Source of the DNA: an uncultured delta proteobacterium
Lineage (GTDB): Bacteria > Desulfobacterota > Binatia > Binatales > Binataceae
Length of the DNA: 64,000 nucleotides
Assembly (NCBI GenBank): GCA_963808235.1
Contig: CAWEEQ010000004.1
Location: 2,080,001 to 2,144,000, forward strand
Direction of reading: 5' to 3'
Within the stretch, counting starts at the first letter, position 1; the number at the start of each line of letters is the position of its first letter. The notes under the pieces were generated by a model. It was not told where the DNA came from, did no database searches, and worked only from the letters and a program-made list of their open reading frames with translations. A program made the translations under genes and the position numbers. Positions 7,645 through 61,834 of this stretch are shown one piece after another.

Positions 7645-7655
7645 GGTAATCCCAA

Positions 7656-8504: not shown

Positions 8505-8520
8505 GCGCGATGCACAACGC

Positions 8521-13499: not shown

Positions 13500-13856
13500 A
13501 TGGCTCGAAACAGCGAACTCGCGTCGCTCAACCAAGAAAGACGAAATGCTTCCGCGCTGGTTACAAAAAGGATAGTGCTGGCTAAGATTTCTTCAACCTA
13601 AGCGAAGAAATCCGCGGAAAGAAAATCGGGCGTGGCGAATTTGCGGCGAATCTAGCCGAACTGGCAAAATCGTGCGCGATGACTCGACCTCCGTCGCGCT
13701 GAACCATTCGATCACTCTAGTCCGGCATCCCAGTTCGTCAAAATTCATGGAACCTTGCAGAAGTGTGTTCGATCTGGTTCGAATTTTTCTGAAACTATAT
13801 AGCCAGGCCATTCGAGAGTATGTTCGGCCCATACAACAGGTGAATGGAGTCAGCCA

Positions 13857-46500: not shown

Positions 46501-47231
46501 AAGCCGGTTTCCGTGAGGTTGCGAAATCCGACCAGAAAGTGCGGTTTCCGTTTTGGGAAGTCCTCTCCGAGGTACAACTGAGCGTGGTCGATCACATTCG
46601 CGGAGACTGGGCACGTGCTCTGTCGCATGTGCAGGCCTCATCCCGCCCCGACCCTGGGATGAGTTCAATCATCGGACTCGCCGAAGGCGCGCTCTTCAGG
46701 CAGATGGCTTACGCGGGCGAGCGCGCCGGTGCGTTGGCTATCTTTCGTGAAAAGCGCGCACTGCTCCCTGGTAGCGGCCATCAGAACCTTAGAGGTTCGT
46801 GGTGGATGCTCGCGCTGGTAGTTGAGGGCCTCGTGATGCTCGGCGAGCAATCGCAAGCGGCGGAGTTCTACCCACTGGTTCGAGAGTTGGTCGCAACCGG
46901 TGCGGTAGCGCTGTGGCCGATCTCACGTTTGACGCAAACGATCGCGGGTATCGCGGCGGCAGCCGCTCATGAGTGGAGCGCCGCTGAAGACCACTTCAAG
47001 ATTGCGACGCAACAGGCTGAGTCATTTCCGCAGCGCCTCGAACTGGCGGAGATCAGACGCTTCCACGCGATGATGTTGATCGAGCGCGGCGCCCGAGGCG
47101 ATCGCGAGAAAGCGCGAACGCTGCTCGTCGAATCGCTTGACACCTACACGCAGATTGGCATGCCCCGCCATATCAAGATCGTTCAGGCTCTGCTCAACCA
47201 GGCGAGTGTCCGAATCAGTTCGACCGGCTAG
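43596..47231 (+). CDS. STAND/AAA_16 ATPase transcriptional regulator with N-terminal putative DNA-binding domain and C-terminal TPR-like repeats
   Basis: FVGRESE, Walker A GGPGVGKS, Walker B LEDLHWAD, FTFAHELVR; N-terminus FRKEGEYW...KGLGYLAHLL...ERARQSITK...IKTGTFCSY. Start may be ATG 43641. Confidence 0.85.
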   Translation: MVPLEFLSNPSGTNPMARETWSARSGSAGIVDLGPTAGAGQNEKGVFRKEGEYWTVGYGGKTFRLKDTKGLGYLAHLLRHPSVEFHVLDLAGGIASQREEDETIASAHGLPRGAEDLEKTGIHIASLGDAGEMLDEQAKSAYRRRLSELQEELEESKELGNVERAEQTEQEIDALTSELSRAVGLGGRNRRAASASERARQSITKTIKAVLDRIAQSDATLGSILSRCIKTGTFCSYLPDPDFPIAWEFEAIEPAEQPTFSVSNAPAPVESHGDAAHSAPAVLGVSPFSLAERTAFVGRESERGVIRAAIDRALEGHGSLIMLGGGPGVGKSRLAMEMGEYASRVGFRCLVGHCYERDEPFPFLPFAEILESSLAQAASRDEFRRRMGENAPELAQIAPSLRRAFPDIPQPLELPPAQRRRYLFQSVSEALGRASRTRSQLHILEDLHWADESTLGLLIHLANRVAQLPVVIIGTYRDGYSEHNSALVRTLEELIRMGTRPLKLGGLSRDAVAEMLHGLSRGRAPENLVSLIFEESQGYPFFVEEVYRHLVEEGKVFDAAGQFRTDIKIDDLDVPENVRLIIGRRLERFDESEKRVLAAAAMIGRSFSFRLLTAVSQIDVDDLFTVIEKAQQMGIIVASSQGPETPFTFAHELVRQTLLGRISAPRQQQLHAGVADAIELVYPRFVNERAGEITDHLLKAGSFADERRLVRYLTLAGKNALEAAAFEESRRSFKSALSYQGTRDPREKAELLVNLSAAELSLERWDAVLANLREALEIYTHLEDREMIGRSFVRLTNVLIWVGRFREAAETGRRGLDYLKGEVSATRGRLLAALGQAIAANGVCESATDALQEALNIASQLSDTKLEARVLGARSIVNLHFFRLREAAADGLLSEQLGGSELNPWQRALQLRVLHQTLVALGRVEEAIEIADQLEPLATRIGQAYSIALCLSTRTWLEFGKELDLAKLEAGFREVAKSDQKVRFPFWEVLSEVQLSVVDHIRGDWARALSHVQASSRPDPGMSSIIGLAEGALFRQMAYAGERAGALAIFREKRALLPGSGHQNLRGSWWMLALVVEGLVMLGEQSQAAEFYPLVRELVATGAVALWPISRLTQTIAGIAAAAAHEWSAAEDHFKIATQQAESFPQRLELAEIRRFHAMMLIERGARGDREKARTLLVESLDTYTQIGMPRHIKIVQALLNQASVRISSTG

Positions 47232-48375
47232 ATCCGTCGAACCGTAGAACAGCATACTTTGCGATGAGTCGCGCTGGTCGCAGGAAGTAGTACAAAAAAT
47301 ATAACGCGGGGGGAAGTTGCAAGGCTTTGTAATCGGCCCAGGAAGGTGCGAAGTGGCCGAGCAGGTAGCGCATACGATGTGGCGCTGACTCGAAAAGCCG
47401 CAAGCAGAAAGGGATTAACTCGGACTCCGGAGTCCGAATAGGCGCGCCTGCCAGCACCCGGTTTCTCACCTGCCGAACAAGTTCATCTACCGCGGTATCG
47501 GCAGGCAGCGTCAACGGCAGCGCGACCCCGAATAGATCCTCCGACAGCTTCAACCCAAGCAAAAGCTCGCGCATCGTGCCGGCGCGAGTCGACGCGGCTA
47601 TCACCTCGGGCCAACGCAAATTCGGAAAGGCGATCGCACATGATGCGACGTCGCAGATCCAGCCGAGGCGTTCGAAGGCATGCTTGGACCCGTGCGCGCA
47701 CAGCAACAGCAGTAGATGTTCCGGACACAGGAGTGGGATCGTGCGGCCGCAGAACGCAGTCGACACGAGCGATCGCCACACTACTTCGTGATCGAAAGGA
47801 CTCGCAAAATAGCTGGGCATGATCCGCCAATGCAGGTCCACGAAGTGGGAATCATCGACCAGCGAGATTTCCGCTTCTCTGCCGCGAAGAAAAGCAGAAT
47901 CGCACGGCCAGTGCAGAGGGCTTGCGACCCGGTAGCCTCGGGCGGTCAAAACGTCGCGGACTCGCAAGACATCGCGCGGATGAACCAGCCAATCGAGATC
48001 TGCGGAAGAGCGCATCGACAGATCGCCATAAAGTTGCTGACTCAGCGCGGGACCTTTCAACGGAACGAAATCGATCTCGTGTTCCTTAAACGATTCGGCC
48101 AATCTGCAGAGCTCTGCACTGAGTGCCAGGTTCCACCGGGTATTCTGTTGGAACGCCAGGCGAAGATTTTCCGCGGCGTGCGGCGGTATCGGGACCGATC
48201 CAAGCGCCCGGTAAAGCATCGGCGTAACGGCATGGCCTGACGAAAGGCGCATCAATTCGGCCCAGTCGATCCCGCCCGGGTCCGGTGGCGGATCTTCAGG
48301 ATGAAAAAACCGGCGCAATGCCGCGACCAGAAATTCGCACTCCCGGCTCACTGGAGGTTTTGGGCCGACCACCAC
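47215..48375 (-). CDS. Nucleotidyltransferase (NTP_transf_5 family, lasso-cluster type)
   Basis: LKGPALSQQLYGD..MRSSADLDWLV, VDLHW, LLLLCAHGSKH, WICDV. Confidence 0.88.
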   Translation of the reverse strand: MVVGPKPPVSRECEFLVAALRRFFHPEDPPPDPGGIDWAELMRLSSGHAVTPMLYRALGSVPIPPHAAENLRLAFQQNTRWNLALSAELCRLAESFKEHEIDFVPLKGPALSQQLYGDLSMRSSADLDWLVHPRDVLRVRDVLTARGYRVASPLHWPCDSAFLRGREAEISLVDDSHFVDLHWRIMPSYFASPFDHEVVWRSLVSTAFCGRTIPLLCPEHLLLLLCAHGSKHAFERLGWICDVASCAIAFPNLRWPEVIAASTRAGTMRELLLGLKLSEDLFGVALPLTLPADTAVDELVRQVRNRVLAGAPIRTPESELIPFCLRLFESAPHRMRYLLGHFAPSWADYKALQLPPALYFLYYFLRPARLIAKYAVLRFDGSSRSN

Positions 48376-50159
48376 ATCGCGTAGCGTCCTCCTCGCGCGA
48401 TCAACTCCTTGTGCGAACCCGATTCGAGCACGCGCCCCTCTTCCATCACGTGAATCTCGTCGGCAAGCATCGCGGTGGTGAACCGATGCGTAATCACCAG
48501 GGCGGTGCGTCCCACTGCAAGATCGCGAAAGCGCCGCAACCAGTCAGCCTCGGCCCACGGATCCATTGCGCTGGTCGGCTCGTCCAGAATCAGGATTGGA
48601 GCCTGCCGCACAAATGCCCGCGCAAGCGCCAGCCGCTGCCACTCGCCCACGCTCAACTCGACGCCCTTGTCGAACCAGTGACCGAGCAGGTTTTCATAGC
48701 CGGCGGGAAGGCGGCGGATGAAAGTCTCGGCGCCGGCAGCCTCCGCGGCGGCGCAAATCAGCCCGTCGTCTCCCATCTTGGAAAGATCGCCCAGGCCGAT
48801 GTTCTCGCGGACCGAGGCGTTGTAGTGGACCGGCTGCTGGAACAACACGGTGACCTGCTGACGAAGCTCGTCGACTGCGAAGTTCCGCAAATCGGTCCCG
48901 TCGATTGTGATCGAGCCGGTCTCGGGATCGTAGAATCGGCACAGCAACTTGACCAGGGTACTCTTGCCCGCTCCGTTGGGACCAACGATCGCTACCACCT
49001 GGCCCTTGGGCACAAAGAGCTCAAAGTCGTTGAGCGCCAGACGTTGTCTGTCTGGGTAGCGAAAACAGATGTTTTGAAAACGAATACCCTCTTGTAGCTG
49101 GCGCGGAACCGGAACCGGCGAAACTGGTGAGATGACTCGCGGCACGAGCTCCAGGAATTCGAACAGGTTGCCGAGGAAGAGCGTGTTTTGATACAGCTCG
49201 CCGACGTTTTGCAAAAGCTCCCGCGCAAGACGCAAGCCTTGCTGAAACGCCTGATACAAAAGCGCCAGATCGCCGAGCGAGAGCTGGCCGCGCAGCGTCC
49301 TGAAAACCATCCAGACGCATGCTGCCGCGGTCACCGCCAGCGTGGACGCGCCCGCCAGCAGCTCCGCCAACCCCTGCGAGCGAGCCAGGTTGATGCGCTT
49401 CTCGCGCAGGAACTTACGCAGCTCGCGATACGCGCCCTCAAAGTAATCTCCCAGCGCAAAGAGGCGGACTTCGGAAGCGTGTTCTCCCGACGTGAGAATC
49501 CAATCGTAATACCAGATTCGGCGTACCACTGGGGTCGTCGTCATGCGAAGCTGGTGCTGCACGACGGCGTAGCGAAGCACCACGGCGAGCGCCGGGATCG
49601 TGCTCAACAACAGCGCCACCGGAAGCCAGATACCGAAACCCGCCAGCACCGCGAGCATCGCGGCAAGTGTGACGCCATTCTGGACCACGGTGCCAAGCTT
49701 TTCGACCAACACCATCGGCCGGCTGCCGGCTTCATCGCGCGCGCGATGGAGATGGTCGTAAAAATCGGGCGATTCGTAAAACGCCAGATCGGCGGCAATC
49801 GACTTGCGGTGAATGAGTCCCGAGATGTGGTCCTGCACCAGCTCGGCCTCGGCAGTGCGGGCCCAGTTGATCACGCCACCCAGCAACTCGGAGAGCAGCA
49901 GCACCATCGCCATCAAGAGCGCAGGCCAGAGCATCGGCCGCCAGTTGCCTCCGGAGCGGACCCCGGCGACAATTCCATTGACCAGGGGCCGGGTCAGATA
50001 AACCGTCGCGACCGGAAGAAATCCTTGAACGAGAAGCAGGGCGGTCCAGATGATGGTCCAGCCGGGCGCGGCTCGCCACACGAGGAGGATCGCGCGAGAG
50101 AGATCAGTCAGCAGAAGCGCCGCGCGACGAAAGCTGATGACAGCAGAGTATTCTGACAA
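48348..50159 (-). CDS. ABC exporter, fused TMD-NBD, no peptidase domain
   Basis: GPNGAGKS, LSVGEWQRLALARAF, LDEPTS. Confidence 0.92.
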   Translation of the reverse strand: MSEYSAVISFRRAALLLTDLSRAILLVWRAAPGWTIIWTALLLVQGFLPVATVYLTRPLVNGIVAGVRSGGNWRPMLWPALLMAMVLLLSELLGGVINWARTAEAELVQDHISGLIHRKSIAADLAFYESPDFYDHLHRARDEAGSRPMVLVEKLGTVVQNGVTLAAMLAVLAGFGIWLPVALLLSTIPALAVVLRYAVVQHQLRMTTTPVVRRIWYYDWILTSGEHASEVRLFALGDYFEGAYRELRKFLREKRINLARSQGLAELLAGASTLAVTAAACVWMVFRTLRGQLSLGDLALLYQAFQQGLRLARELLQNVGELYQNTLFLGNLFEFLELVPRVISPVSPVPVPRQLQEGIRFQNICFRYPDRQRLALNDFELFVPKGQVVAIVGPNGAGKSTLVKLLCRFYDPETGSITIDGTDLRNFAVDELRQQVTVLFQQPVHYNASVRENIGLGDLSKMGDDGLICAAAEAAGAETFIRRLPAGYENLLGHWFDKGVELSVGEWQRLALARAFVRQAPILILDEPTSAMDPWAEADWLRRFRDLAVGRTALVITHRFTTAMLADEIHVMEEGRVLESGSHKELIARGGRYAMWWSAQNLQ

Positions 50160-50203
50160 TCCGTTTATGCCGTGCGCTACTTGACATATTATACCGGCGC
50201 ATA

Positions 50204-51763
50204 GTGGTCAATCTGGAAGCCTCTGAGATTCCACCAGCTGGATTTTCGGCGCCTCGGTCGCGATACGCCGATTGGACCAAATGGAATCCGTTGCCTTGCG
50301 CCCTCGCGGTGCAGGCTGCGCTCCTGTTTTACCGCCTCGATCTGCTCGAACCGTGGGGCGACGAATGGTTCACTCTCACGATAGTTCCACAGCCGTTGAA
50401 CCAAATCCGCGCTGTCGTCGAACGAGTCGCCCATCCGCCGCTCTATTTCTTCCTGCTGCATTTCTGGATTCAACTTCCGTGGCCCGCAAGTCCGCTCACA
50501 AAGATGCGTGCGATGTCGGTCCTGTGGACCTTGCTAGCCACCGTAATTTTAGACCGGCTGTGGCTGATCGAATTGGAGCCGAGGGTGCGGCGAATGTTCC
50601 TTTCGCTATGGGTACTATCGCCTTGCCTGCTGCTCTACGCGCGGATGGCGAGGTCCTACAGCATGCAGTTGGCGCTGGCACTGCTCACGATCTACGCCGC
50701 GTCGAAATGGCTGGCTCGGCCGCAAAGTTTACGATGGCTGCTGGCGTATAGCTGCTCTTTGGTCGCGCTTCTATACACGCACTATTTGCCGGGCTTGGCG
50801 ATTATGGCATCAGCATGGATGTTATTACTTGCAAAGCCGGAGTTGTCGCCGAAGATCCGCATGATGATCGCCGCTGCGCCGATTCTGGCGATCGCGCTCT
50901 TGTACCTATCGGGGCTAACGTTTCCCTTTCTGGCGCTTGGTGCGTGGAGAGCTTCCACCACGTATCGTGTAGGAAACCCGTTCGTCGATCAGCTCGTCCG
51001 GTTCGCCTATTGGTTCGTGTCGTTCTGCTTCGGCGAGACGATTTCCGCGCTCAGCATCGTACTTGGCGCATTACTGACGCCCGCGATTGCGTTCGCGTTG
51101 TATCGCGGTGTGCGGTCGCGACCGGAATGGATGAGCCTCCTTGCCGTGGCTTCCCTGGTCGGTTACATCGGAGTGAGTCGATGGACCGGGTTCCCGTTCA
51201 CACCCGCCCGGGTTCTGTTCGCATTGCCTTTCTTTCTGATCCTGCTGGTGAAAGGAATTGATGCGGGCGCGCGCGGCTCCATCGTATTCGCGGGTCTTTT
51301 GGTCGTATACATTTCCGGCGACTATAGCTACTTCGCAAAGACCGGCTACTTGAACAAGGCGTATTGCGTGCCCTACCAAACGATGGCCGACGTTATCGTC
51401 CGCGACTCACCAGTCAGCGGCGCCGTGCTCCTTGTCGATGGATACAGCTCCGTCCCTGCCCCATTGCTGATTCGGTTGGGAAAAGGGATCAGAGTGATCT
51501 TCCTTGACGACGAACAATCGGCCGAGCCCGAAGTGGAGACGGTCCGGCATCAGACGGGCATCATATGGTTCTGGCGCCACACCAACGATACTTCGCCGGA
51601 CAAATTTGTCAGCCGCCTGGAAACGGATTTGGCTCAGGGCAGGACTGTGAAGGAATACGACTATCTCCCCTACTCGATGCCCGAGCGTTGGATACTGCGC
51701 TTCCTGCGTGGTCCTGGACAGCCCAATTACTTTTACCAGCTATCAGAGCTGAAGCTGGACTAA
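50204..51763 (+). CDS. GT-C fold membrane glycosyltransferase (GT39/PMT-like)
   Basis: WGDEWFT, HPPLYFFLLH, YARMARSYS, LYTHY; multiple TM helices. Confidence 0.8.
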   Translation: MVNLEASEIPPAGFSAPRSRYADWTKWNPLPCALAVQAALLFYRLDLLEPWGDEWFTLTIVPQPLNQIRAVVERVAHPPLYFFLLHFWIQLPWPASPLTKMRAMSVLWTLLATVILDRLWLIELEPRVRRMFLSLWVLSPCLLLYARMARSYSMQLALALLTIYAASKWLARPQSLRWLLAYSCSLVALLYTHYLPGLAIMASAWMLLLAKPELSPKIRMMIAAAPILAIALLYLSGLTFPFLALGAWRASTTYRVGNPFVDQLVRFAYWFVSFCFGETISALSIVLGALLTPAIAFALYRGVRSRPEWMSLLAVASLVGYIGVSRWTGFPFTPARVLFALPFFLILLVKGIDAGARGSIVFAGLLVVYISGDYSYFAKTGYLNKAYCVPYQTMADVIVRDSPVSGAVLLVDGYSSVPAPLLIRLGKGIRVIFLDDEQSAEPEVETVRHQTGIIWFWRHTNDTSPDKFVSRLETDLAQGRTVKEYDYLPYSMPERWILRFLRGPGQPNYFYQLSELKLD

Positions 51764-51769
51764 ACAGGA

Positions 51770-53500
51770 TTGACCTTGTCCCTATCTGACCGCCCTCTTC
51801 TGAAGCACCTACTGCCCGTGAGCGCGTGCGCCACGGCCTTGCTCGCGCTGGGCCTGACGCCGTATGTTGTCACTTGGCTCTCAGGATACGGCTTTTTATG
51901 TCCTACCCAGGGCGACATGCCGTACTACCTGCAGTTAGCCGCGCAGCCTTACTACAATCACTCTCTCTACCTTAGCGATCCTATGATCCAGGGTGGCCCT
52001 ACGTTCTATCCCTGGCTTCAATACATACCGCTGGTCTGCTTGACCCGATTGCTAGGCTTACCGATCTTTGCGATTCAGGTTCTGTGGACAATAGCGGCCG
52101 CGCTCGGAACGAGTCTTACACTCTACTTGTTGCTGTGGCTGGTCTGCCGAAACAGATGGCTTGCGGCAGCTATCACGATTTGCGCCTGGGCCGACATCGA
52201 CTTGGGTATGAACAGGATCGCCCACCGGCCCTTGTTCATACACCAGATCTACCTGGTCGCTTCCGACTTGATCGCGCACCTGCGGGGGCATCGCCTGGTG
52301 GACAGGCCATGGTTTCCCTGGCAATGGCGACTTACCAATCCGGCGTTGGACTTCCCGTTCCTGTTTCTTCAGTTGATCGCGACTTCCATCGCTCGCGAGC
52401 ATCCGAACCGGCGCAACCTCGTTCTTTCCGGCTTAGTCCTCGCGCTGACGTTCTATATCTATTTCTACCTGTGGACGATGATAGCCGTGGGGCTCGGCCT
52501 GGCGATCCTGGTCGATCGGCCCGGCCGCCGGACTTACGTCTGGACGTTGGCATTGGGATTCGCGCTCGGATGGCCGCAGATCGCTCATGATTACCTGGTC
52601 AGAAGTGCATCGTCGGCCGAGGGGCTGAGATATTTCGGGCTAACTACCGACCGCTTGACTACTCTGTCTAAATCTTCTCCATATTTTCATCCTTACCTGG
52701 TTATAGGTGAGCTGGTTATTCTCGGTGTCTGGATTACCCGTCGAAAGGTCCCCTCTCTCGTTCTGACGTGGTGCATTACTTGCGCCGGCGTGGGCCTCTC
52801 ATTGGTTAACTTTGTGACAAGTGTCTATCTGCACAACTACCACTGGTCATGGCTGGTCGCTCCGCTCATACACATTCTGATGGTAGCTGTCGCGCTCGAC
52901 CTGATTATGCTTTGGAAACCGAGGCTGCAGATACCTGTTTGGGTGGGCGCACTATTTGTCTGCGCATTTCTGGCCAGCGGAATCTATCTCACAGAATCCA
53001 CCCTCACGGTCGTCGACTACGACGAGACCACATCACTTTACTCTGAATATGTTCGCCAAAGACTTTCGCCCGGAGTAACGCCTCTTAAGCCTGGCGCGGT
53101 GATTGCGGGCGAATGGAACGTCGTCGATCTCGCCGCGATCGCGGAGCGACAGAGGCCGCTGCGCGGGCGATTTCTGGATAACAACGTGCTCCTTGACGAC
53201 AAGGAGCGGCGAGACCGGTTCGTCCTCGATCACTATCTATCTGGAATCGACACCCACGACGACTTCGCAGTTCGATTGAAGGAGTACTTCTTTATTCCCC
53301 ACCCTCAACTGCCAGCCTATCTGCACACCTTCGACGAAGTATCTCGCGATCCGGACCGCTTCATCGATGATCTTAAGGTACGCTACCTCGTGCTCCCAGC
53401 AACTCAGCCTATCCCGAAGTCCCTGAGCCGCAGGTGGAATCTCATCCAGCCGGGTCCCTACTTCCGGATTTGGGAATGGACTGACAGCGCTCCGAAATAA
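51770..53500 (+). CDS. Polytopic membrane protein, probable GT-C glycosyltransferase
   Basis: TM1 followed by QGDMPYY acidic loop, many TM helices, soluble C-terminus KVRYLVL. Confidence 0.55.
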   Translation: MTLSLSDRPLLKHLLPVSACATALLALGLTPYVVTWLSGYGFLCPTQGDMPYYLQLAAQPYYNHSLYLSDPMIQGGPTFYPWLQYIPLVCLTRLLGLPIFAIQVLWTIAAALGTSLTLYLLLWLVCRNRWLAAAITICAWADIDLGMNRIAHRPLFIHQIYLVASDLIAHLRGHRLVDRPWFPWQWRLTNPALDFPFLFLQLIATSIAREHPNRRNLVLSGLVLALTFYIYFYLWTMIAVGLGLAILVDRPGRRTYVWTLALGFALGWPQIAHDYLVRSASSAEGLRYFGLTTDRLTTLSKSSPYFHPYLVIGELVILGVWITRRKVPSLVLTWCITCAGVGLSLVNFVTSVYLHNYHWSWLVAPLIHILMVAVALDLIMLWKPRLQIPVWVGALFVCAFLASGIYLTESTLTVVDYDETTSLYSEYVRQRLSPGVTPLKPGAVIAGEWNVVDLAAIAERQRPLRGRFLDNNVLLDDKERRDRFVLDHYLSGIDTHDDFAVRLKEYFFIPHPQLPAYLHTFDEVSRDPDRFIDDLKVRYLVLPATQPIPKSLSRRWNLIQPGPYFRIWEWTDSAPK

Positions 53501-53525
53501 ATCTGTTCCCGGCCGATCGTGGAAA

Positions 53526-54666
53526 TCAGTTGCTATATCGCTCGGACAGATTCGCCGCCCTGGTCAGCGCGGCGTTCCAATTCTCGAAGCGTTCCGGATA
53601 TTGCGCGAGAAGCGCCTTTGCGATCTCATCGAGCGTAAGCTTCTGCAGCATGAGATCGAGCACCAGGCTGTCGATCCGCGAGTCTTCGTTGGGCTCCGGA
53701 ACAAAGCTATGTGCGCGTTTGCGCAGGCGGCCGGGCGAAAGCATTGCGCCATCGAAGGTCGATTGCCGAAACCGGGCCTTCACTCGCTCGCAACTCGTCA
53801 CCCGCGTTTCCCACGACCATTGGTAGTCCGACCGGACGAAGGCGGCGCGGAGCTGAACCTCGACCTGGTCGCCCGCCATCAGTTCGACGGCTTCAGGCCA
53901 TGGAAAGAACGAGTTGCTTGTAAACGTGCCGCTCGCCGGAGGCGGGCGAATTGGAATACCCCATCCCCGGGGCGGTTTCGCAATCAAACCAGGTGCACAG
54001 ACCGTGAGCCGTGGCGGCTCGATCGATCACCCACCGCATCTCGCCGTCAACGTTGATGCCCGCGAGGTTCTTGTAGTCCAGGGCCACCCATCGTTGCGGT
54101 GCCGCGATCAAGTCTTCCGCGCTAAGCCGAAATCCGAAATTGTTATTCACTGCTTTGAGACGCGCGCGGTCGAAATCGAATTGATACTCGTTGCCCCACG
54201 CACCGATGAACTTGTCGTAAAGCTCGCGGCAAGAGACAGGCGCGGCCCATATCGTGTCGCGTGCCGGGATGATCCAGCCGTCGGGCTTCAGAAATCTGTC
54301 GCGTGCGTCGAGAATCGAAACGATACTCTTGCCGAAAAGCGGACTGCCGCCGCGAATGTCCGCGACGATACCGTCGACCTTCTCTGGAAGATCGATATCG
54401 GTCGTCATCGCCTGAATGAATTCGATGCGGTCCGAAAACCCGTTGTCTGCCGCGATCTGCTCGGCGAGCTTGATCACGTCATCAGGTTCGACCGCGTAAA
54501 CTTTGCGAGCGCCGGCACGACACGCAAGAAACGCCATGATTCCAGGTCCGGCGCCGATATCCAAAACGACCGCGCCTGGCCGGACGTTAGCCCTCAGCGC
54601 GCGGTCATAAGATGAGGTACGCCCTTTGTCGGCGACCATTTCGCCGTAGGCTACGAGATCATACAT
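53526..54666 (-). CDS. PRMT-like class I SAM methyltransferase, 1-nt frameshift near 53914
   Basis: YGEMVADKGRT..Y, VLDIGAGPGI, VYAVE, ARDRFLKPDG.IIP, HGLCTWFD...SNSP; continues as SFFPWPEAV...DYQWSW in the next frame. Confidence 0.85.
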
Positions 54667-54684
54667 CCGGGCGCTTGAACCGGC

Positions 54685-54856
54685 TCAAGTATTGTCGGAA
54701 GTGTGGGTCCCGTCGCCAGTATCCTGCATAGTGTTTCTGTGCATCATTTTGGTGATGGACCCTAGATCGCCGTAGACTTGTACCTGCGGTTTGCCATACG
54801 GCTTCTTTCCTTCAGGGCTCACTGCTCGAGTCGTCCTTCTGATCTTCCAAAACCAT
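54685..54856 (-). CDS. Lasso peptide precursor A2: ...KKPYGKPQVQVYGDLGSITK-MMHRNTMQDTGDGTHTSDNT
   Basis: YxxPxVxxYGxLxxxT lasso leader motif; open from GTG 54822 to TGA 54685 (45 aa); ATG 54856 with GGAGG RBS is out of frame by an indel near 54830. Confidence 0.82.
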
Positions 54857-54876
54857 TGTTGCTCCCTCCCGACTAT

Positions 54877-54978
54877 TCAGTTTCGCGATGTTAGGTAACC
54901 ATAATAAAGTTCGCCCCCAGCCCCTCTTTCATCATCTATCTCGGCGACCATTTCGCCGTAGTTTACGAGATCATACAT
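54877..54978 (-). pseudogene. Truncated duplicate of the methyltransferase 5' end
   Basis: MYDLVNYGEMVAE versus MYDLVAYGEMVAD, then diverges to a stop. Confidence 0.75.
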
Positions 54979-54998
54979 CCTGATCGCTTTAGACCTTT

Positions 54999-55173
54999 TC
55001 AGGTGTTGTCCGAAGTATGCGTCCCGTCGCCAGTATCCTGCATAGTGTTTCTGTGCATCATTTTGGTGATGGACCCTGAGATCTCCATAGATTTGTAACT
55101 GCGGTTTGCTATACGGCTTCTTTTCTTTGGGTCCGACCGCCCCATCAACATCCTTCCGACTCTCCAAAACCAT
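54999..55173 (-). CDS. Lasso peptide precursor A1: MVLESRKDVDGAVGPKEKKPYSKPQLQIYGDL(R/G)SITK-MMHRNTMQDTGDGTHTSDNT, one extra base near 55077
   Basis: YSKPQLQIYGDL leader; removing 1 nt in CTCAGGGTCC restores a core identical to A2. Confidence 0.82.
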
Positions 55174-57008
55174 TCCTCAATCCCTCCTGACCATTCAATT
55201 TCATGACGTTAGAACACCATAACCAATGATTAAGAACAACCGGCCGCAGGTTCAGCCAGAACTCCCGCGCGTCGGTGGGCATCGTGCCTGGCACCTTCCG
55301 CGGATCCACGTACTTGAGAAGTTCTCCGGTCGGAACCAGCGGCGGCATCCCGGCGCGCCGAACGGCTTGAAATAGCGGAGATCTCAGCCAGCGGCGCCTT
55401 GTCCCTGCGAACCACTTCGTCCGGCAATATATTGCGCATCGCCCGCCTGAGCAAATACTTCCGCCGACACCATGGCAGAGCAGGCACCGAAAGCATATAG
55501 CGGAGCAGTCTCAGATCCACATACGGATGCCAAAACTCCACCGGCGCTTCCGTGAAACCGGGATCCATCGATTCGAACAACCTCGACCACGACGCGCTGG
55601 CGAATGACCCAAACCCAACGGGTCGGACCGGATGAAGCGAATTTGTGGGAGATTGCACCGTCTCCCATCGAGTGCGCGCGTGAATCCTCGATGCGAACTC
55701 ATCGTCAAGCCAGGGTGGAAATCCCGGTTGAGGCACTTCACCGCCGTTGCGCGTGACGTAAGATGCAATCGCCGACGTGGGAAGAACCCGCCGATGTGCG
55801 ATCGCATGCTGGAAAACATCTCGTATCAGTCTGCTCCAGAGGTGCTGTTGTGCCAGGTAACGGAGATACGGCTTCCATTCGTACATCAGCGCGTTGTCCG
55901 AGCCCTCTCCATAAAAGAACACGCGTCCATGTTCGGCCAGTCCGCGATATTCCTCGAGTTTGAACGCGCGCTTGACGGAATAGACTGCCGGTTCAGGAGT
56001 CCGAAAGGGACGGCTGTTCCACTCCCAATCTATTTGCTTGTCGTCGCACGATCGGTAGTGAATCGGAATACCGAGGTGCTGGGCGACCAACCCCGCATAG
56101 TAACGCTCCTCGTCAGGAATCAGATGATCGAAGACGTTGGTGAAGGCCTCCACCGCCGGTCGACGCTCCGAGAACTTGCACGCGGCCGCCGCGAGCGAGG
56201 TCGAGTCCAGTCCGCCCGACATGAACACACCAACCCACGGGGTGCGGGTTCGATCCCGGACTGCAAGCGTCAGTAATTCCGTGAAGCGATCCACGTAATC
56301 CGAGCTGCGCTTGTAGAACACCGGCTCATCGACCGGCATCGACCAGTAACTGCGCGCGACGCAATTGTCTTTTGAGATGGCGAGTGAATGAGCAGGCGCT
56401 AACCGCTGGATATCGGAAAAAATGGTCGTGGCTTTTTCCTGGTTCGTGCCGAAAAGCAAAAAATCGGCAACCGCCTGCTCGTTCAGCTTGCTGGAAACAT
56501 CCGGATGCCGCCGTACGCAGTTCAGAGTATTGCTGAAGACGAACGTTTTACCGGATCGAAAATAGTAGAAAGGTCTGACCCCCAGGTGATCGCGAGCGCA
56601 AAACACCCGTCGAATATGTCCGTCCCAGATCGCGAAGGCGAAATCGCCGAGCAAATGCTCTACGCACTCCTCTTTTAAGGCGTGGTATGCGTGCAGGATG
56701 AGTTCCGCATCAGGCGCCGCGGACACTACCTCCTGACCCTTTGATTTTAGCTTTTCAACCAGGTTCTCGCGGTCATCGATGCGCGCGTCAGCCGTGATCC
56801 AGACTTGGCCGTCCAGACTGAACGGCTGATGCTCCCGCTCGGACTCCCAGGTGGTCCGCAGCATCGTATGACCGAAGCCGACATTCCCCTCGATCCACAT
56901 GCTCTGCGCATCAGGACCCCGGAAGGCCTGATGATCGGTCATCTCCTTGAGCAATAGACGGTCGACCGGTGCGCCGTCCAAATTGACTATGCCGACGATT
57001 CCACTCAT
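55145..57008 (-). CDS. Asparagine-synthetase-like lasso cyclase (C protein), frameshift near 55350-55385
   Basis: MSGIVG (no catalytic Cys2), ARDHLGVRP, PP-loop SGGLDSTS, HPYVDLRL, KYLLRRAM...RDKAPL; tail YVDP...LRPVVLNHWL in the next frame. Confidence 0.87.
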
Positions 57009-58858
57009 TGCGAATTACGCGACTCAGCGGAAAGAGCCCGCGAGGAACCCTTCACCTTTTCCGGTTTGTTGGCTGGCAGCGCCCCGCTTACGACCTGCTG
57101 ATAGAAATTCTCCAATGCCACGACACTTCGCTTGTCCGAATAAAGTCCCTGCCAGCCGGCGACCAGACGTTGAACGACGCGCTCCCGCCATTCCCGATCG
57201 AGCCCAAGATTGACGGCGATCTCAACGTAGTCGGATTTGTCGCGCGCGATAGTCTCGGTCACTCCGAGCTGGGTCAGGATGGCATACGAGTGCCGGCCGC
57301 GCATGAACCTTCCCGGCAATGTCACCACGGGCAACTTGCATGCGATCGCCTCGAAGGTGGAATTGCAGCCGGACCATTCGATGTTATCCAGAAAAATGTC
57401 GCAGAGAGAATTGAGGTTCCAGTAAGTGATCTCGTCAACGGTTGGTACGAATACCACGCGGTCGGCAATCGGCACTCGGGCCGCGGAAAACGCTTTGTCG
57501 AGTCTTCGCTGGAAATCGTTTTTGAGCGCCTCGTTCCACGCAATGAAAACAAATTGCGCGTCCGGTACTCGCTTTGCGATCGCCGGGAACACGTCATCGT
57601 GTTGCGGCAGATACTTGATAGTCGACTGGCATGACAAGTAGGCGATAGCGTCGTCCCGAATCCCAAAATCCGCTCGCGTTTTGTAAAACAAAGCTCTGGG
57701 AATCACCGGCTTCCGGTAACAGATGCCGATACCGGGCAGAGAAACCAACTTTTCAGTATAGAAGCTCTGCGCGCCCTCAGGCTCCATCAGATCACTCGAC
57801 AAAAAGTAGTCGATCGTAGGCAGTCCCGAGGTCATGGGATGGCCCCAGGTGGTGCATTGGATCGGAGCCAGGCGCAGCGCTCCCAGTTGGGTCATTCGCG
57901 GATCCATCCCGATGTCCAGGAAGACCAGGACATGTAACTGATCCGAGAGGATCGCGCGGCAGGTCTCTTCCAGATCGCCCGCCAGGTGTCGGAAGCGGAA
58001 ACTTGCGCGCCGCGCATCCTCGGTCCGGCCGTCTGCCTCACTTCCGAGGTAATAGGAAAAAATCTGGAATCTGTCTCGACTGTGTTCCTCGAGCCATCCC
58101 AGGTGATCCTTGGCGACGCTATGATTGCGCAAATTGGCCGAGACGTAACCGATGCGCAGCTTGCCGTCATCCGGCGGCATTCGAAGCCGCTGCACCCAAT
58201 CCGGATAGTTCGCCGCCATGATGCGATGCGCGACGTCGCCGTACATCGCCTGGAGTGTTCGGTCATCGTGCCCTTGGTACGCGAGTTGAAAATTAACGTG
58301 ACGTTTGAGTCCCGCCAGGCAACTCTCCCTTTCCTCCGCAGTGTCGAGGCGCAGTCCATCCGCGATTTCGCGTAGACCTTCGGTGAACCGGCAGCGGTAC
58401 CGCTCAACTTCATCCGAATCCGAGTACAACATCGGCAGGAGCAGTCCCTCCTGGAGCTTGAATAAGAAATCGGAAGGAAACTTCGCGCGCGCAGCCCGAA
58501 CTATTTCAAGGGCGTCCGCGGTGCGATTGCTGTCTTCCAGGAGCCGGATGCATCGCCGATAAAGTTTCACCGGCGCCGCGCACTGCTTGATCCCCGTTCG
58601 AAGCGTGTCGATCGCGGCTTCGTACCCGCCAAGCGCCTCCTGACATCGCGCCGCCTCCATGTAGGCTTCCGGATCCCGATCGCGAACTCGCAACTCTGCG
58701 CAAGCCTTCTCCAACGCCGCCAGGTGCGCTTTGTGCTCTTCGACTTTGAACGATTCGCACTGTTGCCTGAAGATGTCTTTCACAGAATTCAATTGCAAAA
58801 AACTCTTCTCATGCAGTGCTGGAAATCTTTTCGTCGCTCGCGCGACCGCCATCGGCAA
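57005..58858 (-). CDS. TPR-containing O-GlcNAc transferase/SPINDLY-type glycosyltransferase (GT41)
   Basis: TPR-like N-terminus; LRIGYVS...HSV, LDIGMDP, RLAPIQCTTWGHP.TSGLPTIDYF, DIFLD..WSGCNSTFEA, LPVVTLPG..MRGR. True start probably ~58775-58800. Confidence 0.88.
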   Translation of the reverse strand: MPMAVARATKRFPALHEKSFLQLNSVKDIFRQQCESFKVEEHKAHLAALEKACAELRVRDRDPEAYMEAARCQEALGGYEAAIDTLRTGIKQCAAPVKLYRRCIRLLEDSNRTADALEIVRAARAKFPSDFLFKLQEGLLLPMLYSDSDEVERYRCRFTEGLREIADGLRLDTAEERESCLAGLKRHVNFQLAYQGHDDRTLQAMYGDVAHRIMAANYPDWVQRLRMPPDDGKLRIGYVSANLRNHSVAKDHLGWLEEHSRDRFQIFSYYLGSEADGRTEDARRASFRFRHLAGDLEETCRAILSDQLHVLVFLDIGMDPRMTQLGALRLAPIQCTTWGHPMTSGLPTIDYFLSSDLMEPEGAQSFYTEKLVSLPGIGICYRKPVIPRALFYKTRADFGIRDDAIAYLSCQSTIKYLPQHDDVFPAIAKRVPDAQFVFIAWNEALKNDFQRRLDKAFSAARVPIADRVVFVPTVDEITYWNLNSLCDIFLDNIEWSGCNSTFEAIACKLPVVTLPGRFMRGRHSYAILTQLGVTETIARDKSDYVEIAVNLGLDREWRERVVQRLVAGWQGLYSDKRSVVALENFYQQVVSGALPANKPEKVKGSSRALSAESRNSQ

Positions 58859-59790
58859 GGTCGGCGAGGATCCGGGCGCGAACTTCCGGAAGCAGCGCGA
58901 GGTCTCTTGGATACGAAATTCGTTTCACTGGCACTTGAGAGGCCAGCTGCCGCGATTTCGAAAATAGTTGCTGCAGACGTTCGCGGATCAGTCATCACGC
59001 TATTAAAAGTGTGGCGAATCAGTTCGACTAGCGCCTCGCGCTGAGAAAGCGTGGCGATCTGGATGCGCTGCTTGCGAAAGACCTCGCGCGGACCGCTGAG
59101 CACATAAACGGTGTGCAACGGCACCGGACTGGCCTGGTGGTGATGCTCTCCGAGCGGCAGTACCAGCTTCTCCGACCAATCGTTCATGCGCACGCCCTCG
59201 CCGCTCAGACCCAGGCAGCGGCGCGCCACCCACGGGAACACCTTGATTCGAGGTGGACCCGGCTGTGCCTCAAAACCGCCCGACGACTTTTGCGATACCA
59301 GCAGCAGATCGTCGGTGAGCAGCCGATGCCCATCGCTTAGAAATGTCGCCGCAAGCGAGGACTTCCCGAATCCACTCTCGCCAACGAATGCCAGCGCGTC
59401 CCCATCCAACACAACCGTGCTCGAATGAATCGGCTCAAAGCCCTGCTTCACCAGCGCAAACGACAGCGCGCGCCCCAAAAGGTAGACCTGCAACGATTCA
59501 CGAGACTCCGCACCGAGCCACCCGAACCAGATCCGGCGTCCGTCGCCATCCACCACGAACTCACAAAGGCCATCCCAGCGCAGGTAGACCTGATCATTGT
59601 CGAGGATAGCGTACTCGTACTGACGGTACGCGGCGGACTTCAGGAGCGCATCGCGACTCTTCTCACGAAAGAAGCTATCCGATTCGCTGAGCAGGTCGAC
59701 GTCCGGTTCCCCGATCGGGGAACCTTCCGCGAAGGAAAGCTCGACGTCGCTTCGCAGACGAATTCCGTAGATTTCATAGCGGTGCGTCAT
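58809..59790 (-). CDS. HPr-kinase-like (lasso peptide) kinase, 1-nt frameshift near 58983
   Basis: IHSSTV, GESGFGKSS, LLTDDLL; corrected tail ERLQQLF...VPVKRISYPRDLALLPEV to TGA 58809. Confidence 0.85.
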
Positions 59791-60074
59791 CAGGTGATCT
59801 CGACCAGCCCCTGCTCCGCCAGCTGTTCCACCAGGTCACGGATATCGGCCTCGAGTTGCGCCGCCTCGACATCGTATTCAGCCTGCAAAATGTCATGAAT
59901 CTGCCCGAGAGTCATCGGCTCCTGGATCAGCTGCCAAACCCGCGCGCCCACCGGATCGAGGCCGTAGTAAACGCTGTTCTTGAGATTCAGAATGGCCGCC
60001 TCGCCCTCCAGATCGCACGAAACCTGATCTTTTGACGCGATAACACGTGACTCGATCCCAAGTTTTACGGCCAC
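59790..60074 (-). CDS. PqqD-family RiPP recognition element (lasso B1)
   Basis: QVSCDLEGEAAILNLKNSVYYGLDPVGARVWQLI...EYDV...DI...L...GLV. Confidence 0.92.
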   Translation of the reverse strand: MAVKLGIESRVIASKDQVSCDLEGEAAILNLKNSVYYGLDPVGARVWQLIQEPMTLGQIHDILQAEYDVEAAQLEADIRDLVEQLAEQGLVEIT

Positions 60075-60188
60075 TGCGAGCTTCCTCTGTTAAGAGACTT
60101 AAATAACTCTACGTATGTTAACCGATGTTCCGTTCGAGTGTAAAGGCTTTACGGGTTCGCAGCCTTAAAGGTGCCTATTTTACGAAGA

Positions 60189-61373
60189 TTACGTAGCGAT
60201 CTTCAGCAGCCCTTCCTGGATTAGGCGCCGAACCAGGACGACCTTGGACTGCTCGGTGAGCATATCGGGCAGGTCATCGACCCGGAACCGCTCGTGTTTC
60301 GCAACGAATTCCAACGCTTCGGCTATACTTGGAGGACCGCTCACGACGCGCGTACCGAACTCGATACTCGCATTCGAATTCGTTCGGGTTACCCGGATGC
60401 TCCAGCCGAGGCGTCGGACCACCTCGGTGTGAGCCGCTATCGAACGTGCTCGCTCGATCGCGTTGAAATGAGGCTCCGGCGACGTCCGAAATTCGCGGCT
60501 GCGAGCGCCCGCGCATCGCGTCATCGCCTCCATCGCAACCTCGCGTCCCTGTACTGCCTTAAGAAGCGACGCGAACTCGCGCCCAATCTCGTCGGCTCGC
60601 GATTCGTCGCCCGGCGTAAACGACGGAACCGCATGGCGGAAAAGCTCGTTCCGCTCCGCGACGACGCGCAGACCCGCTTCCAGCAGATCGAGCCATCGAA
60701 GCGGGAAAATTCCGATCGTAAGATGCATCGACGGAACTTCGGTTCTCACCGCCTCATGGATGAATCCTCGCGGCAGATAAACAATTTGCCCCGGCTCCGT
60801 TGTTACTTCGAGGACCGGCGTGCCTAGCTCATGCTCCCCGCGTTTCACCACGGTTTCCTGCGGCTCCAGCGGCAACAGGTACTGCGGAGCGTAAACCCGC
60901 CATGACTTCCGACCCTCGAGTTGCAGGATGATCACGTCGTGCGAGTCGGCGTGCGCCGAAAATCCCTTCGCTTCCGACGGCGTGCAGTAAAGATTCACCG
61001 TGACCTTGTGCCCGATATCGAGCGCGACACCGCTCGCCAGCCGCGCCACCGGAGTGCTCCGCCGATGCAACTTGTGCACGCCGATACTCCAGCCCTTGGC
61101 GTAGGCCCGATAGATCGCCGACATGTCGGGGAGCCCGTCCGGCCCTCGCTCGACGGAGTACGACTCGACCCCGTAAGCATCGGACCGCACCATGTAGTCC
61201 TTCGAGCCTGACTCCTGCGCCGTCGTATGATCGAGGATCGCATCGAGGTCGTCGAACGTAGGCATGTCGCGGCACCAATCGGGCATCGGCCTCGCCACAT
61301 AGAGCGGCCGCTTCTCCCAGTACTCGGACCAGAACGTCGCGAGAGAAACCGGATCGATTAGCTGCTGCAACAT
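60189..61373 (-). CDS. JmjC/cupin-4 2-oxoglutarate Fe(II) oxygenase (RoxA/NO66-like)
   Basis: FWSEYWEKRP, NLYCTP, HADSHD, QLEGRKSW, YLPRGFIHEA, SMHLT; winged-helix-like tail LVRRLIQEGLL. Confidence 0.88.
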   Translation of the reverse strand: MLQQLIDPVSLATFWSEYWEKRPLYVARPMPDWCRDMPTFDDLDAILDHTTAQESGSKDYMVRSDAYGVESYSVERGPDGLPDMSAIYRAYAKGWSIGVHKLHRRSTPVARLASGVALDIGHKVTVNLYCTPSEAKGFSAHADSHDVIILQLEGRKSWRVYAPQYLLPLEPQETVVKRGEHELGTPVLEVTTEPGQIVYLPRGFIHEAVRTEVPSMHLTIGIFPLRWLDLLEAGLRVVAERNELFRHAVPSFTPGDESRADEIGREFASLLKAVQGREVAMEAMTRCAGARSREFRTSPEPHFNAIERARSIAAHTEVVRRLGWSIRVTRTNSNASIEFGTRVVSGPPSIAEALEFVAKHERFRVDDLPDMLTEQSKVVLVRRLIQEGLLKIAT

Positions 61374-61441
61374 CAGATGTTAAAAATTGAGTTCAGATTG
61401 ATCGCAGGCGCGAAGATCGTCACGCCGCAATGCAACGCCCT

Positions 61442-61834
61442 TCACTTCCCCGCCTTCACGTATGCCTCGAGCGGCGGCGTCTTGGCGACGTGTCTAAGAT
61501 CGCGCGCGTTGGACAGTCCTTCGGAAAGCAAGTCCTCATCGCTGATCTCGACCCTGCCGTCCGCGCGCTTCGTGGATACTGACGCGGGCGGCAAAACCAG
61601 GTGCACCGAGTCCGCCGACGAAAGATGAACTTCGAGCGTCGTCTCAGCCGGTATGACGATTCCACACCGCCGCTCGAACACCTCTCTCGGATTCTTTTGC
61701 AGCTCGCGCGCAAAGTCCGGATTTCGCATCGCCTCGGTAAGCATCGCCACCACTCGCGAGCTCCGCATCGAGGCCGGAATCGACAGCACGCAAGCGAGCA
61801 CGAGCTGCACTTCGAGTTTGGGCTGCTCGCCCAT
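61442..61834 (-). CDS. Nitrile-hydratase-like leader peptide (NHLP)-type protein
   Basis: AMRNPDFARELQKNPREVFE...GIVIP...LEVH...VHLVLPP...EISDEDL; TAATG coupling to the upstream gene. Confidence 0.65.
   Translation of the reverse strand: MGEQPKLEVQLVLACVLSIPASMRSSRVVAMLTEAMRNPDFARELQKNPREVFERRCGIVIPAETTLEVHLSSADSVHLVLPPASVSTKRADGRVEISDEDLLSEGLSNARDLRHVAKTPPLEAYVKAGK

Follow-up and report, generated by a model that had tools for sequence, protein, structure and literature searches.

Does a lasso peptide gene cluster that also encodes a glycosyltransferase resembling the O-GlcNAc transferase OGT, a methyltransferase with the fold of protein arginine methyltransferases (PRMTs) and a JmjC oxygenase make one multiply modified peptide, and is such a cluster intact? 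The question is raised by a stretch of 64,000 nucleotides (nt), hereafter the window, from the metagenome-assembled genome (MAG) of an uncultured delta proteobacterium of the Binataceae (assembly GCA_963808235.1, contig CAWEEQ010000004.1, positions 2,080,001 to 2,144,000 of the forward strand). Listing of its open reading frames (ORFs) and Pfam and NCBIfam scans of its proteins gave the gene identities (Table 1). By its gene content, window 47215-64000 is a minus-strand, split-B, kinase-type lasso peptide cluster, and all parts that define the class, namely the precursor, the B2 peptidase, the RiPP recognition element (RRE; RiPP, a peptide that is made on the ribosome and modified after translation) and the cyclase, can be recognized. 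An initial annotation, made from the letters alone, had likened the set of kinase, NTP_transf_5 and ABC genes to the paeninodin-pseudomycoidin layout and had read a 20-residue core; both statements are borne out, and every gene that it named was found where it had been placed. Its end point for the cluster, 61834, was wrong, as the NHLP-like gene, a 779-residue membrane protein, the B2 peptidase and a second PqqD protein (PqqD2) also belong to it. It had also passed over two plus-strand genes of membrane proteins in 50204-53500, between the methyltransferase and ABC genes. Since a whole-genome search and the flanking sequence placed the B2 and PqqD2 genes 300-1040 nt past the window end, we extend the cluster from 47215 to ~65040 (in window-equivalent coordinates), i.e. 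~17.8 kb. The gene order in that flank is PqqD2, B2, the 779-residue membrane protein and the NHLP-like gene. The lasso cluster is a real one and probably intact, and it probably works, directing the synthesis of a ribosomal lasso peptide that belongs to the kinase-associated, split-B kind.

Table 1. Features of the predicted lasso peptide cluster. Coordinates are window positions unless another sequence is named; L002 is the flank past the window end. aa, amino acids; SAM, S-adenosylmethionine; TPR, tetratricopeptide repeat; 2OG, 2-oxoglutarate.
Feature	Position	Strand	Remarks
NTP_transf_5 nucleotidyltransferase (PsmN-like), 386 aa	47215..48375	-	PF14907 192.2 bits
ABC exporter, 603 aa, fused permease/ATPase	48348..50159	-	ABC_tran 113 bits, and ABC_membrane
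U519, predicted GT-C-fold polytopic membrane glycosyltransferase, 519 aa	50204..51763	+	no Pfam match
U576, polytopic membrane protein, 576 aa	51770..53500	+	no Pfam or NCBIfam match; GT-C-like Atlas leads only
PRMT-fold SAM methyltransferase	53526..54666	-	extra base ~53910 splits it into 257-aa (53893-54666) and 153-aa ORFs
Precursor copy 2	54685..54856	-	leader and 20-aa core MMHRNTMQDTGDGTHTSDNT; extra base ~54831 in N-terminal part of leader
Duplicated 5' end of methyltransferase gene	54936..54980	-	repeat family D3, 91% identity
Precursor copy 1	54999..55173	-	same core; frame shifted immediately ahead of it by an extra base at 55078
Lasso cyclase (Asn-synthase-like)	55145..57008	-	extra base ~55380 garbles last ~50 codons of listed ORF 55230-57008
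GT41 (OGT-like) glycosyltransferase, N-terminal TPRs	57005..58858	-	PF13844 105.8 bits (cut-off 25)
HPr-kinase-like peptide kinase	58789..59790	-	extra base ~58980 garbles last ~60 codons
PqqD-type RRE (PqqD1)	59790..60074	-	PF05402 70 bits
JmjC_2 (ROX-type) Fe/2OG oxygenase, 394 aa	60189..61373	-	PF08007 87.5 bits
NHLP-leader-type precursor-like protein, 130 aa	61442..61834	-	TIGR03793 34.6 bits (cut-off 50.9)
U779, polytopic membrane protein, 779 aa	61834..64000, past window end; full gene L002:1834-4173	-	no Pfam match
B2 transglutaminase-like leader peptidase	G000:C4:2144330-2144665 = L002:4303-4824		PF13471 90.9 bits; ~303-330 nt past window end

The two precursor copies form a ~314-nt tandem duplication that also copied the first ~45 nt of the methyltransferase gene. 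When copy 1 is translated from 54999-55076 it yields the same core as copy 2, and the latter matches the hidden Markov model (HMM) of the family's precursors with an E-value of 6e-8. The leader (...PYGKPQVQVYGDLGSITK) fits Y-x2-P-x-[LV]-x3-G-x5-T-x, which we take to be the lasso leader motif, and it places an Asp at core position 9. The core holds one Arg, Arg4, and ends in Thr.

The enzymes of the core machinery carry the expected motifs. The cyclase combines GATase_7 and Asn_synthase domains (PF00733, 79.9 bits); its N-terminus reads MSGIVG instead of MCG, the glutaminase Cys2 being gone, and SGGLDS is present. The same two features recur in the family, where 60 of the 87 cyclase ORFs start with MSG and 85 contain SGGxDS. 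In the kinase, which matches TIGR04352 with 31.4 bits, the motif H-x14-GxxGxGKS-x15-DD is intact and all eight catalytic residues stand at the spacing of BsfK (H148...D187); the H...GxxGxGKS...DD motif is found in 66 of 75 family kinases. The catalytic motif of BsfK is that given in PMC10368454, and BsfK shows that acceptors at sites other than a C-terminal Ser, and Thr as acceptor, are possible. PqqD2, encoded next to B2, scores 59 bits with PF05402; PqqD1 outscores it in 63 of the 73 PqqD regions of other loci and is thus closer to the family's usual RRE. Orthologues of the NTP_transf_5 protein (72-77% identity) occupy the same cluster end in the related loci L003 and L004 and in the same-genus genome G408. 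The ABC exporter has no C39 peptidase domain in the Pfam and NCBIfam scans, and its NCBIfam matches, MsbA-like and NHLM_micro_ABC2-like, are all below cut-off.

The cluster shares with those of paeninodin, pseudomycoidin and Bsf (PadeK, PsmK/PsmN, BsfK/BsfN) the split B1/B2 arrangement, an Asn-synthase-like cyclase, an ABC exporter, a PF14907 nucleotidyltransferase like PsmN and an HPr-kinase-like kinase, whose catalytic motif is identical. In contrast to them, it belongs to soil MAG lineages, it offers a Thr rather than a Ser as acceptor candidate and its predicted ring would join Met1 and Asp9. Its additional genes code for the GT41 protein, the PRMT-fold methyltransferase, the JmjC oxygenase, the NHLP-like protein, the second RRE and a GT-C enzyme. 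PadeK and PsmK phosphorylate a C-terminal Ser (Zyubko et al.; review PMC9266682).

To place the cluster among its relatives, one genome per species was scanned. Relatives of the cyclase are encoded in 594 of the 600 candidate stretches, from which we retained the 80 best loci for a tblastn search with the window proteins (E < 1e-5, coverage of at least 40%). Most come from Acidobacteriota MAGs, some others from cyanobacteria and from 'delta proteobacterium'/Binatia-like MAGs. A kinase is encoded in 74 of the 80 loci, PqqD in 71, B2 in 46, NTP_transf_5 in 31, the PRMT-fold methyltransferase in 30 and the ABC protein in 19. GT41 and JmjC are found in two loci each, the NHLP-like protein, U519 and U576 in one each (always L003), and U779 in none, L003 included. 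The closest relatives by cyclase identity are L003 (76%) and L004 (72%). With an HMM made from the precursor peptides of the window and L003, ~87 precursors were retrieved. They share one leader, KKPY..P.L..YG...ELTQ, an Asp that is most often at core position 9, and a K/R-Thr located 0-3 residues before the C-terminus. For the core counts given below, we compared 40 cores from methyltransferase-bearing loci with 44 from loci without the gene, ~5 of these precursors being mis-parsed by the pattern. The family is a large, coherent branch of kinase-type lasso clusters, uncharacterized as far as we found, with paeninodin, pseudomycoidin and the Bsf system as its characterized relatives.

Accessory genes are exchanged within this branch. 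Where GT41 stands in L083, L003 has Methyltransf_25 and a 2OG oxygenase, and clustering of 1179 neighbouring ORFs revealed as further recurrent accessories 2OG-FeII_Oxy_3, radical SAM (rSAM), GT2/GT4 and acyltransferase proteins. The accessories singled out in the initial annotation do co-occur with precursors in related loci: PRMT-like genes in the 30 loci mentioned above, GT41 beside precursors in L083/L084, L085, L094, L017 and, weakly, L030, and JmjC in L003 and L025. The methyltransferase, which had been taken for an exotic addition, is therefore an ordinary part of the cluster family. In agreement with the claim that no characterized lasso pathway has this combination, our literature search found nothing that ties lasso peptides to GT41, O-GlcNAc or OGT or to PRMT-type enzymes, with the proviso that co-occurrence tables may still list PF13844, PF06325 and PF08007; at least two accessory enzyme types, the OGT-type GT41 and the PRMT-fold methyltransferase, are thus without a description that we could find in a lasso context.

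Some loci of the survey differ in composition. One sub-lineage (L024, L027, L033-L035, L041, L043, L046-L079 and others) has neither methyltransferase nor NTP_transf_5 and is set among polysaccharide genes: Wzy_C (21 loci), Wzz/GNVR (13), Poly_export (11), DegT (17) and ABC-2 transporter pairs (22-27). L004, a 21.8-kb locus, reads PqqD-kinase-cyclase-precursor-methyltransferase-NTP_transf_5, and no B2, ABC, JmjC or membrane protein gene was detected within 10 kb. Pseudomycoidin can form without B proteins (Zyubko et al.). In G408, a remnant of the cluster (L107, G408:C6:914000-933999) retains NTP_transf_5, ABC, U519, two 2OG oxygenases, Methyltransf_25, the PRMT-fold methyltransferase and a precursor; its cyclase is devoid of the first ~137 residues, and the kinase and PqqD are missing.

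The GT41 protein is most similar, among solved structures, to the catalytic domain of human OGT (E 2e-33), the Thermobaculum OGT (TtOGT), SPINDLY and XcOGT. It shares with them the GT41 catalytic domain and N-terminal TPRs (TPR_14, 23.8 bits for a cut-off of 23.5), and the alignment with OGT shows that the His of the N-terminal catalytic lobe and the Lys of 'K-x-x-P' are kept. It differs from them by a short TPR region, by 'GCNS' in place of the OGT 'GHTT' and by its location within a RiPP operon. We take the aligned His, Lys and GHTT residues to have roles in UDP-sugar binding. The real start of the gene is probably near 58785-58800, just past the kinase stop; the L083 and L084 orthologues (79% identity) align from residue 25 of the window protein.

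A metagenome scan with the window GT41 returned 15 loci, ten of them without lasso genes in reach. In L083 and L084 the gene order is methyltransferase-GT41, and in L083 another methyltransferase and then U576 come next. The more distant GT41 of L085 (51%) belongs to a full cluster, in the order cyclase-GT41-methyltransferase, with rSAM/SPASM and GT4 genes. L094 (38%) has the order cyclase-precursor-2OG oxygenase-GT41, in L096 GT41 adjoins U576, and in L017, a Desulfobaccales MAG, two GT41 copies (41-42%) follow the kinase and NTP_transf_5. The weak case is the cyanobacterial lasso locus L030, in which L030:14799-17990 (minus strand) codes for a 1063-residue DUF4915-TPR-GT41 fusion beside a 448-residue PRMT-fold methyltransferase. 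Several GT41 relatives outside lasso loci (L086-L091) are open frames of 1000-1500 residues. In a tree of 19 GT41 sequences, from which L094 and L096 were omitted owing to short coverage, the lasso-linked proteins do not form one clade; the distribution takes three changes, and well-supported branches force at least two gains. N-glycosylation, considered because of an NGT-like match of 34.8 bits, was rejected as a general reading since the cores from GT41 loci share no N-x-S/T sequon.

Glycosylation of lasso peptides has other precedents. In the davasin paper (PMC11912497), IgtG, a GT2 enzyme, is stated to be the sole glycosyltransferase found co-occurring with lasso genes. Davasin and the window are alike in having a dedicated glycosyltransferase gene in the lasso cluster, aimed, in our prediction for the window, at a Ser/Thr hydroxyl. 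In contrast, IgtG is described there as a membrane-bound GT2/polysaccharide-deacetylase fusion that acts iteratively on the mature lasso, while the window protein is a soluble TPR-GT41 enzyme of the OGT type. Zyubko et al. point to an unstudied cyanobacterial kinase-lasso cluster with a recognizable glycosyltransferase.

The methyltransferase is intact, at 379-380 residues, in L003, L004 and L085. It matches PrmA (41.6 bits) and PRMT_C (31.2 bits, cut-off 27), and SAM motif I, VVLDIGAGPG, is present. With PRMT1, PRMT6 and CARM1 (Types I-III) it shares this Rossmann motif and the fold, including the PRMT_C barrel, but it has an extra C-terminal domain of ~120 residues. Among the 40 cores from methyltransferase-bearing loci, 32 have their last Thr no more than 0-1 residues before the end, and among the 44 cores without the gene, 33 have it 2-3 residues before the end. 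We rejected this split as evidence for the target site, because it follows two sub-lineages and because several loci without methyltransferase but with NTP_transf_5 also end in Thr.

The JmjC protein is closest to the histidyl hydroxylases NO66 (E 2e-26) and MINA53 (E 5e-21), with YxbC and YcfD also among its relatives. It shares the JmjC_2 fold with NO66, MINA53 and YcfD, its HxD...H iron triad aligns to that of NO66, and H141, D143, H206 and H217 are invariant in three sequences. Relatives recur in L003 (70% identity) and L025 (23%). CanE of canucin, a lasso Asp beta-hydroxylase that the review PMC9266682 describes only as a putative non-heme Fe/2OG enzyme, provides a precedent for Fe/2OG hydroxylation of a lasso precursor. 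CanE is not known to be a JmjC_2/ROX protein. In PMC12710340, RRE-like domains fused to PF08007 are reported. The NHLP-like protein next to the JmjC gene has seven metagenomic relatives (64-69% identity); a search of 400 further genomes from the same phylum sample did not find it.

Three large membrane proteins, U519, U576 and U779, had no Pfam match at E-values up to 10. The homologues of U519 number at least 327, and JGI names some of them Dol-P-Man mannosyltransferase or ArnT-like. The AlphaFold2 (AF2) model of U519 has a predicted local distance difference test (pLDDT) score of 80, and Foldseek ranks 1-40 (best E 9e-6) are almost all GT-C proteins (STT3, DPY19, ALG9/12, ArnT, PglB, PMT), rank 40 being a GPI-transamidase subunit. 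D53 and E54, which make up the acidic motif of the first outer loop, do not vary among 30 sequences. As judged from the model, U519 is a GT-C-fold glycosyltransferase. U576 is conserved in L003 (65%), L083 and L096, and adjoins GT41 in the latter two. U779 has only Atlas leads (DUF6311, RgtA-like, YfhO). That the three are paralogues was rejected, as hhalign of the U519 profile against U576 and U779 gave probabilities of 1% and 0.3% and BLASTP between them nothing.

Several observations weigh against a working lasso cluster with this set of modifications. The models of the respective families are matched below cut-off by the cyclase (NF033535, 376.6 bits for a cut-off of 525), PqqD1 (NF033536, 68.7 for 80), the kinase (Hpr_kinase_C, PF07475, 27.2 for 33.3) and the 45-residue ORF 54685-54822 of the precursor (NF033528, 19.1 for 33). 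To our knowledge, Met at core residue 1 is unusual among characterized lasso peptides; the tail has few bulky residues, and it offers a C-terminal Thr as acceptor candidate where PadeK and PsmK phosphorylate Ser. From gene identities, motifs, synteny and the recurrence of accessory genes, moreover, we infer every chemical step, modification site and the order of the steps. The reading frames raise the most direct doubt. Relative to L003 and L004 there are five single-base insertions, at 53910 (methyltransferase), 54831 and 55078 (one in each precursor), 55379/55381 (cyclase) and 58980 (kinase), which split the methyltransferase, garble the C-termini of the kinase and cyclase and create part of the gene overlaps; of the abutting and overlapping genes seen in the initial annotation, the minus-strand run is thus real, and some of the overlaps are artefacts of these insertions. 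Real frameshifts would mean that the cluster is decaying into an array of pseudogenes in this genome and is intact only in related strains. All five are confined to 53910-58980 (5 kb), none lies in a long homopolymer, and long ORFs elsewhere in the window are intact (a 1357-residue polyketide synthase (PKS), AcrB proteins of 1076 and 1058 residues and an 845-residue molybdenum cofactor (MoCo) dehydrogenase); the cluster is also patchy in the genus, with the truncated remnant in G408 and an orthologous cyclase in one of 12 genomes. However, decay would hardly be expected to yield five independent +1 events and no deletion or stop mutation, and Logan contigs from four soil-metagenome runs, compared over 53500-59800 at a depth below 5, tell against it. 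These contigs, otherwise 95-99+% identical to the window, are devoid of the extra base at 53910 in X1 and X2, at 54831 and 55078 in X1, at 55379/55381 in X1, X5 and X2, and at 58980 in X2. X1, which may be the MAG's own sample, thus corrects four of the five sites, and its pieces around the insertion sites, of 116-546 nt, have 0-4 substitutions each. A GATC adjoins three of the five sites (sites considered: 53910, 55078, ~55380 and 58980), which would presumably fit a motif-linked base-calling error of long reads. The MAG series shows frame breaks elsewhere too, since the ABC gene of L003, a MAG of the same series, is also broken (three overlapping ORFs, L003:18017-19825). Because near-identical short-read contigs from soil are without every one of the extra bases, the five frameshifts are most likely consensus errors, and we consider decay of the cluster unlikely.

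Given an intact cluster, the question becomes which of its enzymes act on the lasso peptide. GT41, the GT-C enzyme and the membrane proteins could be general genes for protein or cell-envelope glycosylation that merely lie beside the lasso genes and modify no peptide. GT41 is absent from the closest full relatives, L003 and L004, and was not found in any of the 12 same-genus genomes searched; relatives at 42-47% identity have no lasso genes within 10 kb (L086-L092) and interleave with the lasso-linked ones in the tree. The number of U519 homologues is far beyond that of this cluster type, many related lasso loci lie inside polysaccharide loci (Wzy_C, Wzz, Poly_export, DegT), and bacterial GT41 enzymes with many protein targets are reported in PMC11329713. 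Set against this are the position of GT41 within the operon, where 4 nt at its stop are shared with the cyclase start and it probably begins within ~25 nt after the kinase stop, its recurrence in at least five other lasso contexts and in four different positions, the lasso-type methyltransferase next to all three relatives of at least 51% identity, and the clustering of the lasso label on the tree beyond chance (five of 500 shuffles as low). We thus find mere neighbourhood an improbable explanation, and we conclude that GT41 is a rare but recurrent, repeatedly recruited lasso accessory gene. More improbable still is that the methyltransferase is a true PRMT acting on Arg4 of the core, as PRMT-type methylation in the initial annotation would imply. 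Its best matches in the PDB are indeed PRMT1/6/2/CARM1 (E 1e-29), it has the PRMT_C barrel and the window core is among those with an Arg; but in the alignment to PRMT1 (6cu3/8dur) the double-E loop is replaced (D...K), SEWMGYFLLYES aligning to ADIRGRTPLYKK, and THW reads QHIY. Both losses hold across 29 members of the methyltransferase family, whose conserved loop is D-x-R-G-x-[LP]. Because the double-E loop is missing and only 14 of the 40 cores from methyltransferase-bearing loci contain Arg (26 are Arg-free), the target is probably not arginine and the enzyme should not be filed as an arginine methyltransferase; the Arg conserved in its substrate loop would rather hint at a target that is acidic or phosphorylated. 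The most serious rival concerns the JmjC hydroxylase: the gene is present, as initially annotated, and recurs, but it may serve the adjoining NHLP-like peptide rather than the lasso peptide. The cluster would then be a hybrid, in which PqqD2, the 130-residue protein and JmjC form a nested second RiPP module and the lasso product is not hydroxylated. The NHLP-like gene abuts JmjC in both genomic contexts in which it was seen, the window and L003, and both also carry a second, diverged PqqD; the adjacency rests on these two contexts, and L021, L036 and L064 have two PqqD regions too but no NHLP-like match. By profile the protein is a divergent NHLP-leader member (190 proteins retrieved; 21 of 22 sampled match TIGR03793, 16 above cut-off), and its model has a leader-like folded domain (residues ~20-80, pLDDT 72-87) and a low-confidence, floppy C-terminal tail of ~48 residues. 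Complex prediction for JmjC with this protein scored 0.39, the best control 0.00, with at least 66% of contacts shared between runs and a partner pLDDT of at least 65, which would weakly favour an interaction. The mark for such a prediction is reached by 58 of 80 solved complexes and two of 110 mismatched pairs, at scores of 0.60 or less by seven of the 80 and both mismatches. By the method's own account, a result of this kind misleads more often than not where the pairing was not likely beforehand. A second RiPP family with its own RRE, co-located with paeninodin-like lasso clusters, is a precedent (PMC13381572). Unlike genuine NHLP precursors, however, the 130-residue protein scores below the TIGR03793 cut-off, has no Gly-Gly site before a C-terminal stretch that is as conserved as the leader in all eight sequences, and is accompanied by no C39-ABC partner, the exporter being devoid of that peptidase domain, and by no cyclodehydratase, rSAM or LanM gene; in L025, JmjC_2 directly follows a lasso precursor, with no NHLP-like gene. 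Because the NHLP-like gene adjoins JmjC, a second PqqD is present and the complex prediction gives weak support, we regard a nested module as a serious possibility, if somewhat less probable than its opposite.

Other genes around the cluster do not appear to belong to it. The 1211-residue AAA_16/TPR regulator encoded at 43596-47231 (plus strand) converges on the cluster end and shows a partial match to the TOMM kinase/cyclase fusion model, of 135 bits and thus well under the cut-off; it was not counted in because it is absent from all 80 related loci. At window 1-5983 (minus strand) a type I PKS module (ACP, KS, AT, DH), open at the window start and preceded by an AMP-binding enzyme, forms a second biosynthetic locus unrelated to the lasso cluster. 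On its far side, the cluster is followed by genes on the other strand for three large collagen-triple-helix-repeat proteins and a sulfatase (L002:5466-7145, 7629-9164 and 12875-15256, plus strand, past the window end).

We thus return to a working lasso pathway and propose the following course. The two tandem precursor genes would supply the same 20-residue core behind a canonical lasso leader, which the PqqD RRE would present. The B2 transglutaminase-like peptidase would cut after Thr-Lys and the Asn-synthase-like cyclase would join the Met1 amine to Asp9. Tailoring may take place before or around leader cleavage and cyclization: the HPr-kinase-like enzyme would phosphorylate the (near-)C-terminal, family-conserved Thr, the PsmN-like NTP_transf_5 protein may extend the phosphate on it, the OGT-like GT41 may add a sugar to a Ser or Thr, and the PRMT-fold enzyme may methylate a non-arginine site. 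The substrate of the ROX-type JmjC hydroxylase would be either the lasso precursor or the NHLP-type peptide encoded next to it, and the ABC protein would export the product. A joint reading goes further. RiPP pathways would have taken up GT41 for tailoring on at least two occasions, its sugar on a Ser/Thr of the lasso tail and the phospho-Thr together acting as a steric lock for a tail poor in bulky residues; the PRMT-fold enzyme, with D-x-R-G in place of the double-E loop, would have been retargeted to an acidic or phosphorylated group near the C-terminus, and the NHLP/JmjC genes would be a nested module. In all its parts together this scenario is speculative and rather unlikely. If true, the locus would be a RiPP island with two products, and the enzyme families of which it is made would be ones known best from nuclear signalling in eukaryotes.

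As scaffolds, lasso peptides are stable, and they have antibiotic and receptor-binding activities; with every new tailoring enzyme, more can be built on them. The lasso glycosylation that we found described consists of one GT2 enzyme (PMC11912497) and PsmN-dependent addition of a phospho-hexose. A soluble OGT-type peptide glycosyltransferase would, if our prediction is true, be a new biocatalyst. A PRMT-fold enzyme without the arginine-binding loop, kept in 30 of the 80 clusters, points to an undescribed methylation chemistry. With its predicted chemistry, the cluster is a promising target for natural-product work. The family as a whole is a resource for mining, a large, uncharacterized group of lasso clusters in uncultured soil phyla that share one leader and freely swap their accessory genes (GT41, PRMT-fold and other methyltransferases, JmjC, 2OG oxygenases, radical SAM proteins, GT4 and acyltransferases). 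These swaps may serve as natural 'knock-in/knock-out' comparisons for assigning functions to the enzymes.

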